A DNA stretch of 29,908 nt from Escherichia coli (GTDB taxonomy: Bacteria; Pseudomonadota; Gammaproteobacteria; Enterobacterales; Enterobacteriaceae): NCBI RefSeq assembly GCF_003334315.1, contig NZ_QOWR01000056.1; one strand, 5' to 3'. The position numbers and the translations under genes are program-made. Of this stretch, positions 13,686 to 16,725 are shown one piece after another. Position 1 is the first letter of the stretch; the number at the start of each line of letters is the position of its first letter. The notes under the pieces were generated by a model. The model worked only from the letters and a program-made list of their open reading frames with translations. It was not told the origin of the DNA and did not search any database.

Positions 13686-15008
<1,323 letters not shown>

Positions 15009-15021
15009 TCTCATCACTTAT

Positions 15022-15109
15022 GCCCGCACTCCCTTCCCCGAGTGCGGGTGTTTGCGCATAATTGACCCCTGTGCCTGAACTTACCACCTGGGTGAGTTCA
15101 GGTTTATTT
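15022..15109 (+). terminator. Two tandem stem-loops downstream of dctA; the second is a strong intrinsic-terminator candidate
   Basis: Hairpin 1 at 15022..15049 (gcccgcactc / gagtgcgggt, 8-nt loop). Hairpin 2 at 15074..15102 (cctgaacttacc / ggtgagttcagg, about 12 bp) followed by tttattt. Confidence 0.5.
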
Positions 15110-15228
15110 CACTTCTTCCGTGACATTTTCATGTTCTTGCGGTCTAACACGAAGTGTTTTTAACGTCATTTAGACTGACCGACAACGGGCAGTTTTTTTA
15201 TTACCAGGATAGTTGATCAGGGGTTCAC

Positions 15229-16725
15229 ATGCAGGGCACAAAAATTCGACTTTTAGCGGGCGGTTTGCTGATGATGGCCACTGCTGGCTATGTGCAGGCA
15301 GATGCGCTCCAGCCTGATCCAGCATGGCAACAGGGGACGCTTTCCAACGGTTTACAGTGGCAAGTGCTGACCACCCCCCAGCGTCCCAGCGATCGTGTTG
15401 AAATTCGCCTGCTGGTTAATACCGGTTCGCTCGCCGAAAGTACACAACAGAGCGGTTACAGTCACGCCATCCCTCGTATTGCGCTAACGCAAAGCGGTGG
15501 CCTTGACGCAGCACAGGCGCGTTCATTGTGGCAGCAGGGGATCGACCCTAAACGCCCGATGCCGCCGGTAATTGTCTCTTATGACACCACGCTGTTTAAT
15601 CTGAGTTTGCCCAATAACCGTAACGATTTGCTGAAAGAAGCGCTCTCTTATCTGGCAAATGCCACTGGCAAATTGACCATCACACCAGAAACCATCAACC
15701 ACGCGCTGCAAAGTCAGGACATGGTGGCAACCTGGCCTGCCGATACTAAAGAGGGCTGGTGGCGCTATCGTCTGAAAGGGTCAACCTTGTTAGGTCACGA
15801 TCCTGCCGATCCGCTGAAACAACCCGTTGAAGCGGAAAAAATTAAAGATTTCTATCAGAAATGGTACACCCCGGATGCAATGACGCTACTGGTGGTGGGA
15901 AACGTGGATGCGCGCTCGGTTGTCGACCAAATAAACAAAACGTTTGGCGAACTGAAAGGCAAACGTGAAACGCCAGCTCCGGTGCCGACGCTTTCTCCGC
16001 TGCGTGCGGAAGCGGTGAGTATTATGACTGACGCGGTGCGTCAGGACCGGTTATCTATCATGTGGGATACGCCGTGGCAGCCGATTCGTGAATCAGCCGC
16101 ACTGCTGCGCTACTGGCGTGCGGACCTGGCCCGCGAGGCGCTGTTCTGGCATGTTCAGCAAGCGTTAAGCGCCAGTAACAGCAAAGACATCGGTCTTGGA
16201 TTTGACTGCCGTGTGCTGTATCTGCGTGCGCAGTGTGCCATCAACATCGAATCACCAAACGACAAGCTGAACAGCAACCTTAATCTGGTGGCGCGTGAAC
16301 TGGCGAAGGTTCGCGATAAAGGTCTGCCGGAAGAAGAGTTCAATGCGTTAGTGGCGCAAAAGAAACTGGAGCTGCAGAAACTGTTTGCCGCCTATGCACG
16401 AGCTGATACCGATATTCTGATGGGTCAGCGGATGCGTTCGTTGCAAAATCAGGTTGTCGATATCGCGCCGGAGCAATATCAGAAACTGCGGCAGGATTTC
16501 CTTAATAGCCTGACGGTAGAGATGTTAAATCAGGATCTGCGTCAACAGTTGTCGAATGATATGGCGTTAATACTGCTGCAGCCGAAAGGCGAGCCGGAAT
16601 TTAACATGAAAGCGTTGCAGGCGGTCTGGGATCAAATCATGGCCCCATCTACCGCCGCTGCGACCACCTCTGTCGCCACGGATGACGTACATCCTGAAGT
16701 GACGGATATTCCACCTGCACAGTAA
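15229..16725 (+). CDS. yhjJ: YhjJ, periplasmic M16-family (pitrilysin-like) protein, 498 aa
   Basis: ORF 15229..16725 with signal peptide MQGTKIRLLAGGLLMMATAGYVQA; identified from recall of K-12 YhjJ. No HxxEH zinc motif in the translation. Confidence 0.9.
   Translation: MQGTKIRLLAGGLLMMATAGYVQADALQPDPAWQQGTLSNGLQWQVLTTPQRPSDRVEIRLLVNTGSLAESTQQSGYSHAIPRIALTQSGGLDAAQARSLWQQGIDPKRPMPPVIVSYDTTLFNLSLPNNRNDLLKEALSYLANATGKLTITPETINHALQSQDMVATWPADTKEGWWRYRLKGSTLLGHDPADPLKQPVEAEKIKDFYQKWYTPDAMTLLVVGNVDARSVVDQINKTFGELKGKRETPAPVPTLSPLRAEAVSIMTDAVRQDRLSIMWDTPWQPIRESAALLRYWRADLAREALFWHVQQALSASNSKDIGLGFDCRVLYLRAQCAINIESPNDKLNSNLNLVARELAKVRDKGLPEEEFNALVAQKKLELQKLFAAYARADTDILMGQRMRSLQNQVVDIAPEQYQKLRQDFLNSLTVEMLNQDLRQQLSNDMALILLQPKGEPEFNMKALQAVWDQIMAPSTAAATTSVATDDVHPEVTDIPPAQ

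Follow-up and report, generated by a model that had tools for sequence, protein, structure and literature searches.

The 220-nucleotide (nt) spacer between dctA, which encodes a C4-dicarboxylate transporter, and the protease gene yhjJ (15009-15228, + strand, in a 29,908-nt stretch of Escherichia coli DNA from contig NZ_QOWR01000056.1, referred to here as the window) contains two stem-loops. The first, hairpin 1 (15020-15051, +), is conserved throughout the Enterobacteriaceae and, as judged from its covariation, is a structure selected in the dctA sense RNA. The second, hairpin 2 (15073-15103, +), forms the Rho-independent terminator of dctA together with an adjoining UUUAUUU tract. We propose that the spacer is a compact junction in which 3' signals of dctA overlap 5' signals of yhjJ, with a putative sigma-70-type promoter laid over hairpin 1 and a sigma-E-type promoter downstream of hairpin 2; taken whole, we consider this reading of hairpin, terminator and promoter slightly better than an even bet. 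The junction is mostly an ordinary arrangement of terminator and promoter, to which one undescribed conserved stem-loop is added. The two stem-loops had been pointed out in a first-pass annotation made from the letters alone, which also remarked that only the second has a clear U-tract. Folding bears out both observations: the stems lie where it had placed them after the dctA stop codon, on the + strand, with none of 200 shuffles as stable in either case, and UUUAUUU follows hairpin 2 where GUUUGCGCAUAAUU follows hairpin 1.

Hairpin 1 lies 12 nt past the dctA stop codon (TAA, 15006-15008, +, from the end of the open reading frame, ORF, and the annotation of strain MG1655). Its Watson-Crick core pairs 15023-15031 with 15040-15048 (CCCGCACUC/GAGUGCGGG) around the 8-nt loop CCUUCCCC (15032-15039), and additional G·U, U·G and A-U pairs lengthen the stem to 15020-15051. 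The free energy of folding (ΔG), a z-score and 200 dinucleotide-preserving shuffles were computed for each hairpin; hairpin 1 gave a ΔG of -20.4 kcal/mol and a z-score of -6.4, and no shuffled sequence was as stable. For both hairpins the + strand gives the more stable fold; on the - strand, hairpin 1 has a ΔG of -19.2. For the comparison between species, one genome per species was scanned with YhjJ, which gave 80 Enterobacteriaceae loci, 79 of them with the end of dctA directly upstream; Salmonella was joined to the comparison separately. Most species have a spacer of about 220 nt, a minority one of about 185 nt. Hairpin 1 was present in all 79 orthologous spacers, at a constant distance from the stop codon, and is the most conserved feature of the spacer.

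Covariation was analyzed on an alignment of these 79 sequences (68 distinct rows) over a helix of 10 pairs. Pairing was possible in 94.2% of the cells, against 33-46% (at most 45.5%) when the 3' partners were slid by 1 to 3 columns. Two-sided changes affected seven of the ten pairs (58 cells), none of 500 shuffles reached any of the observed measures, and RNAalifold found the same helix. The two strands differed markedly, with 73 G·U pairs on the + strand and 5 on the - strand, and with 94.2% and 84.1% of the cells paired, respectively; the + strand fold was the more stable one in 51 of the 68 distinct sequences. The strand asymmetry of the G·U pairs shows that selection acts on the fold of the dctA sense RNA, and not on an antisense RNA or on a protein-bound DNA palindrome. 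Two small ORFs of 13 amino acids that overlap the hairpin were also considered. The one on the + strand (ATG at 15021 to TAA at 15060-15062) has its ATG replaced in Klebsiella, Trabulsiella and others, and the one on the - strand (ATG at 15059 to TAA at 15020-15018), which in E. coli has AGGGG 6 nt upstream, lacks a conserved Shine-Dalgarno sequence. One-nucleotide indels in the loop shift both frames, and both ORFs were rejected as non-coding.

Hairpin 2 comprises 13 pairs, six of them G-C, and a 5-nt loop, and folds with a ΔG of -21.1 kcal/mol (z = -5.1; none of 200 shuffles as stable). A consensus scan of 14500-15700 reported it as the sole terminator-like site. The tract UUUAUUU (TTTATTT in the DNA, 15103-15109, +) starts at the last stem position and passes the criterion of the scan for a terminator U-tract, namely at least five T in eight bases. 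Published 3' ends could be placed directly on the window, whose spacer is 100% identical to K-12 MG1655 3681941-3682160 on the opposite strand (MG1655 coordinate = 3697169 - window coordinate); dctA, at 13722-15008 (+) in the window, is annotated there at 3682161-3683447 on the minus strand. Term-seq mapped an RNA 3' end at MG1655 3682061 (-), which is window position 15108, within the U-tract, with a score of 65832 (PMC7815308, Adams et al. 2021, supplementary files 1 and 3). This end, present in the dataset from LB at OD 0.4, is insensitive to inhibition of Rho by bicyclomycin, with a Rho score of 1.2 ('No') and an intrinsic-terminator score of 6.3, where values above 3 predict intrinsic termination (PMC7815308). 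Its label 'orphan' reflects nothing but its distance of 100 nt from the stop codon, which exceeds the 50 nt that the authors allowed for 'primary' ends (PMC7815308). No other sense 3' end was listed in MG1655 36819xx-36822xx under three growth conditions, in curated Term-seq lists from which minor ends may be missing. Taken together, these data show that hairpin 2 and UUUAUUU are the Rho-independent terminator of dctA, with the RNA ending at 15108. This terminator is already contained in the published 3'-end data and is routine.

The same stretch of DNA is in one place in nearly all strains. A 431-nt query across both hairpins found a match of at least 99% identity in 5423 of 5426 complete E. 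coli genomes, beneath dctA/yhjJ, and the hairpin element occupied one place per genome in these 5423, also in a sensitive blastn mode. Being single-copy in each genome, it is not a dispersed repeat of the REP/BIME type. Between species, hairpin 2 is far from constant. The segment from CATAAT, a conserved hexamer at 15057-15062, to the next conserved block falls into two length classes, one of 57-77 nt (mostly 57-60) with a hairpin and one of 23 nt without. The sequence of hairpin 2 varies by clade, with GCCUGAACUUACC...GGUGAGUUCAGGU in Escherichia, CCUGAAACCGCCG...CGGCGGCGUCGGG in the Citrobacter freundii group, GGUCAUUCCCGC...GCGGGAAUGAC in Klebsiella and a weak AU-rich version in Enterobacter; the same position is occupied in most genera by equivalent but non-homologous hairpins. 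The short class, about ten species, includes Trabulsiella, Franconibacter, Pluralibacter, Superficieibacter and a few further lineages. Hairpin 2 thus evolves as terminators usually do, kept in most lineages and replaceable. Just 5' of it, the segment ACCCCUG (15066-15072, +) is complementary to CAGGGGU (15217-15223) in the ribosome-binding region of yhjJ. This match is kept in Escherichia, Salmonella, Citrobacter, Phytobacter and Kosakonia, and its absence from Klebsiella and Enterobacter suggests that it is probably coincidental.

Hairpin 1 is not a terminator. It has no U-tract and was not reported by the terminator scan, and no sense Term-seq 3' end was recorded at or after it in the three conditions of the same curated lists. 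It might nevertheless be a second, weak or backup intrinsic terminator, or a decaying ancestral one with no further role, a suggestion to which its stable GC-rich stem near the stop codon and the somewhat U-rich tail (GUUUG) of the Escherichia, Salmonella and C. freundii clade lend some color. The tail, GUUUGCGC in E. coli, is in most genera CUCCUGCG and contains no U-tract, and the silence of both the scan and the sense 3'-end data speaks in the same direction. Furthermore, local terminators turn over fast, as hairpin 2 illustrates. Hairpin 1, by contrast, is fixed in position, loop and flank throughout the family, as a relic would not be. We regard this explanation as very improbable. The first-pass annotation had suggested a terminator accompanied by a second RNA element for stability or processing; the mapped intrinsic terminator and the distinct, selected structure of hairpin 1, with seven of ten pairs covarying, bear out this pair of elements in outline. 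It had also named 3'-end mapping that yields a single dctA terminus and no stable short RNA as evidence against its view, and half of that picture is what the lists contain under three conditions, with one sense 3' end only and none after hairpin 1.

The loop and 3' flank of hairpin 1 carry a promoter-like pattern, a signal which, like the sigma-E promoter of yhjJ and a third hairpin described below, had gone unnoticed in the first-pass annotation. Two loop positions are an invariant TT (T26 and T27 of the alignment), and directly after the stem stands the near-invariant 10-mer TGCGCATAAT (15053-15062, +), every position of which is invariant or at least 90% conserved. The 10-mer ends in the -10-like hexamer CATAAT (15057-15062), found in 78 of 80 orthologs. 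The hexamer 17 bp upstream, defined from the alignment and the ortholog tally, lies in the loop and is TTCCCC in E. coli (15034-15039, +); it reads TTGnnn in 62 of the 80 orthologs, while the other 18, from Escherichia, Salmonella and the C. freundii group, have TTCnnn. Sixty-six of the 80 keep a spacing of 17 bp, and Franconibacter has one of 18 bp. TTCCCC-17-CATAAT of E. coli matches the sigma-70 consensus at 8 of 12 positions, and 35 of the 80 orthologs reach 9 of 12. In a consensus scan, the only sigma-70-type site near the spacer was TTGTCG-17-CATAAT for Enterobacter soli and TTGATG-17-CATAAT for Trabulsiella. The invariant positions are those on which a promoter depends: TT in the -35 and, within CATAAT, A2 and T6. 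From these features, TTG-17-CATAAT probably acts as a sigma-70-type promoter toward yhjJ, with a predicted start at about 15069. The loop and 3' arm of hairpin 1 would then double as the -35 element and spacer, which would freeze the position of the hairpin; the proposed overlap would account for the covarying stem, the invariant loop TT(G), the invariant -10 and the fixed spacing together. Hairpin 2 would serve twice, terminating dctA and forming the structure at the 5' end of whatever is transcribed from the sigma-70 promoter.

The published 3'-end data are consistent with a start site in this region. A 3' end that has a stop codon as its first upstream feature was kept only if a start site of Thomason 2015 lay 21-200 nt upstream (PMC7815308, Supplementary file 3). 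The end at 15108 is listed in that file, which indirectly implies a start site within window 14908-15087, and of the sigma-70-like candidates in the 200 nt that precede this end TTCCCC-17-CATAAT is the best. A natural variant separates the two overlapping elements. In Yokenella regensburgei (locus L065, 2280-2500) an insertion of about 38 nt parts hairpin 1 from the -10 block, which reads GGGTATAATGG in this species: TATAAT stands for CATAAT, so that the -10 is kept and improved, and TGCGC is lost. At the level of sequence, this variant uncouples hairpin 1 from the promoter-like element.

Several observations weigh against the junction as we read it. The consensus scan, which applies a stricter rule, does not report this site in E. 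coli, where the -35 is only TTCCCC, or in Citrobacter braakii, both versions reaching only 8/12. The implied start may lie inside the end of dctA instead, where AATAAT at 14964 scores 7/12, and neither SMRT-Cappable-seq, Cappable-seq (both K-12 coordinate versions) nor Kim 2012 gives a start site for the dctA-yhjJ locus. A promoter that fires straight into a terminator is odd; by way of speculation, a 5'-terminal hairpin could stabilise read-through transcripts. The conserved TGCG just 5' of CATAAT is unaccounted for by a sigma-70 promoter. Finally, against the putative stabilising role of hairpin 1, the curated Term-seq lists contain no sense 3' end at its base. Sigma-54, an extended -10 and several transcription-factor motifs were compared by eye with TGCGCA and none fitted, and the complement of the conserved 10-mer had no match above chance elsewhere in the window, the dctA leader included.

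In a different view of the flank, hairpin 1 and the invariant TGCGCAUAAU are not a promoter but a cis-regulatory RNA site on the dctA mRNA that controls its decay. The site would be read by a nuclease or other factor, RNase E for instance, which might cleave the AU-rich linker that separates the hairpins, or by a small regulatory RNA (sRNA) that pairs with it. Such a site would explain why the entire 10-mer is conserved, including the TGCG that a sigma-70 promoter does not need. With a stable hairpin on either side, the 10-mer itself is single-stranded; it is in the sense RNA that the fold is under selection; and in RIL-seq the intergenic region (IGR) behaves as the target of one highly connected sRNA. 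On the other side, no sense 3' end was mapped at or just after hairpin 1, and in Yokenella only ATAAT is kept, TGCGC being lost and the block no longer adjoining the hairpin, a pattern more in keeping with a -10 element than with an RNA site. There is also no complementary partner in the dctA leader or the rest of the window, and a possible pairing with the last part of the dctA ORF shows no covariation. That last candidate, UGCG of the tail with CGCA in the last dctA codons, was discarded as the coding partner varies (CCCA, CACA) while the tail is invariant. We consider a cis-acting decay site unlikely. In a bolder version, similarly improbable in our estimation, hairpin 1 together with the invariant UGCGCAUAAU would be a cis-regulatory RNA module common to the whole family, or else would supply the body and the seed of an sRNA that the 3' untranslated region (UTR) yields only under certain conditions. 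If it were true, the fate of the transporter mRNA would be coupled to the neighboring sigma-E-controlled periplasmic protease YhjJ, for example via a factor reading the conserved loop and tail, and the promoter-like pattern would be secondary or coincidental.

Within the overlapping-signal arrangement that we favor, hairpin 1 itself would most likely act as a 3' barrier, or stabiliser, on dctA transcripts that have escaped termination at hairpin 2 or have lost it to trimming. In the species without hairpin 2, hairpin 1 is the only stable structure from the dctA stop codon to the sigma-E promoter region. Trimming of Rho-terminated transcripts back to stem-loops has been described (Dar and Sorek 2018, as cited in PMC7815308). 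Term-seq also recorded a minor antisense RNA 3' end at window position 15020 (-), the base of hairpin 1 read on the opposite strand (MG1655 3682149, +), with a score of 956 and in a growth condition other than that of the sense end (PMC7815308); we read it as a sign that exonucleases stop at this stem.

Enterobacterial sRNAs derived from 3' UTRs are produced either from an internal promoter (DapZ, MicL) or by processing (CpxQ, SroC). The dctA 3' UTR could likewise yield an sRNA, as the first-pass annotation had suggested in naming the 3' end of an unannotated one. A processed form, about 100 nt long, would contain hairpin 1, followed by the conserved, single-stranded CUCCUGCGCAUAAU that would be its seed, and would be terminated by hairpin 2; a form made from an internal promoter would be about 40 nt and essentially hairpin 2. 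The layout, a structured 5' part followed by a conserved single-stranded 10-mer and an intrinsic terminator, is like that of known sRNAs of this origin, the strong Term-seq 3' end is of the 'orphan' class with an implied start site at most 200 nt upstream, and the dctA-yhjJ IGR appears in Hfq RIL-seq chimeras. Its behavior in those chimeras is that of a target. A RIL-seq classifier covering three growth conditions gave 'yhjJ.dctA.IGR' an sRNA score of 3.6e-5 (Bar et al. 2021, PMC8175672), and the IGR has 14 chimeric fragments with one partner and a second-in-chimera (SIC) score of -1, meaning that it is always first (PMC8175672). The U-tail is short and interrupted (UUUAUUU), and hairpin 2 and the sequence just 5' of it are not conserved; in about ten species the loss of hairpin 2 would leave the putative sRNA with no terminator. 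An Rfam covariance-model search of 14500-15800 on both strands, up to E = 10, returned no match, and the searched literature makes no mention of such an RNA. The suggestion of an sRNA therefore found no positive support in the RIL-seq and Rfam results, and it is the implied start site that keeps it alive, with a low probability.

Downstream of both hairpins, a sigma-E-type promoter of yhjJ is predicted at 15120-15148 (+), with the -35 block GTGACATTT at 15120-15128, the -10 block CGGTCTAAC at 15140-15148 and a start at about 15152-15155. Both blocks are strongly conserved across the family. The published sigma-E consensus is GGAACTTTT / (T/C)GGTCAAAA with A/T-rich upstream sequence (PMC1312014, Rhodius et al. 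2006), and the equivalents of GGAACTT (GTGACAT, 15120-15126) and TCAAA (TCTAA, 15143-15147) stand 16 nt apart. In E. coli yhjJ belongs to the sigma-E regulon and is induced 8-fold by sigma-E (PMC2731931). The Salmonella yhjJ peak is among the strongest in sigma-E chromatin immunoprecipitation (ChIP), and its authors saw no recognisable consensus in it (PMC4577112). The consensus match was tested here and the dependence on sigma-E is published, which together point to a sigma-E promoter at 15120-15148; this downstream promoter would give yhjJ its known induction by envelope stress. The segment TTATTTCAC, which includes the U-tract of the terminator, stays conserved where hairpin 2 is absent and is probably an UP-like A/T-rich region of the sigma-E promoter. 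The sigma-E -35 is overlapped by a weak PhoB site from published ChIP-seq (PMC10294691). This site lies at MG1655 3682037; its sequence, GAACATGAAAATGTCACG, is that of window 15119-15136 in reverse complement, and its authors observed no significant expression change (PMC10294691).

The yhjJ 5' leader contains a third hairpin followed by a T-run (15172-15199, +), found by folding and located some 30 nt ahead of the start codon. The E. coli version is weak (ΔG -9.0, z -2.2). Its position is held in 81 orthologs with widely different sequences and a mean ΔG of -12, and the scan called it terminator-like in C. braakii. No Term-seq 3' end is listed at it in the three conditions. It may serve as an attenuator, stabilise the leader or mark where a short sigma-E-driven RNA ends. 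The ribosome-binding site CAGGGG and the ATG start of yhjJ (15218-15231, +; ORF 15229-16725) lie in the near-invariant block ACCAGGAnnGTTGATCAGGGGTTCAC.

Distant homologues of YhjJ with 41-45% identity have no dctA upstream and no recognisable hairpin element, at a divergence too great to decide the matter. In two of them (L084, 2330-2500, and L087, 1829-2068; 41-42% identity) the gene directly follows a GAPES3-domain gene, with no dctA between, and this upstream gene is related to the N-terminus of pdeK. It may be that dctA was inserted between pdeK and yhjJ in Enterobacteriaceae. Within dctA, published Term-seq data place a further 3' end early in the ORF, at window 13919 (+; MG1655 3683250), beside a predicted pairing site for MgrR. 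An RNase III cleavage site (Gordon et al. 2017; MG1655 3683389, window 13780) is also in the 5' part of the ORF and was set aside as unrelated to the 3' UTR.

So far as the searched sources show, neither the conservation of hairpin 1 throughout the family nor its apparent interlock with a promoter has been described, though both are of a known kind, and these findings on the spacer would overturn no current understanding. Post-transcriptional control of dctA is heavy at the 5' end of the gene, and for questions of mRNA stability the findings supply a defined element at the 3' end. With its sense-RNA covariation and invariant flank, hairpin 1 is among the most constrained non-coding features of the dctA-yhjJ locus across the Enterobacteriaceae. 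If the interlock is real, overlapping 3' and 5' signals can freeze in place a hairpin that would otherwise evolve fast, and if the promoter is real, yhjJ, which encodes a poorly understood protease of the sigma-E regulon, would have a second, non-stress promoter.

Among known systems, hairpin 1 can be compared with 3' protective stem-loops such as REP stabilisers and the trimmed ends of Rho-terminated transcripts. It shares with them its stability, its lack of a U-tract, its place just past the stop codon and its formation in the sense RNA, and the minor antisense 3' end falls exactly at its base, as expected for exonuclease trimming. It differs from them in being single-copy, and so no REP repeat, in the sequence conservation of its loop and flank, and in having no sense 3' end recorded at its base in E. 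coli. The resemblance to sRNAs derived from 3' UTRs lies in the location of the element, the terminator shared with the mRNA, the conserved single-stranded stretch upstream and perhaps an internal promoter; in contrast to them, the dctA IGR is target-like in RIL-seq, and conservation is lacking both in its terminator and in the single-stranded part at its 5' side. Hairpin 2 corresponds to the intrinsic terminators of E. coli in its 13-pair, GC-containing stem, 5-nt loop, adjoining U-rich tract and Rho-insensitive 3' end. It departs from them in that the U-tract is interrupted (UUUAUUU) and apparently overlaps the A/T-rich upstream region of the next promoter, while hairpin 1 has the stem of such a terminator without a U-tract or a mapped 3' end. 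As for the promoters of the sigma-E regulon, the match accounts for the conservation downstream of both hairpins, though not for the hairpins themselves; the blocks at 15120-15148 fit the consensus with the usual spacing and an A/T-rich upstream region, and yhjJ is a published gene of the regulon.

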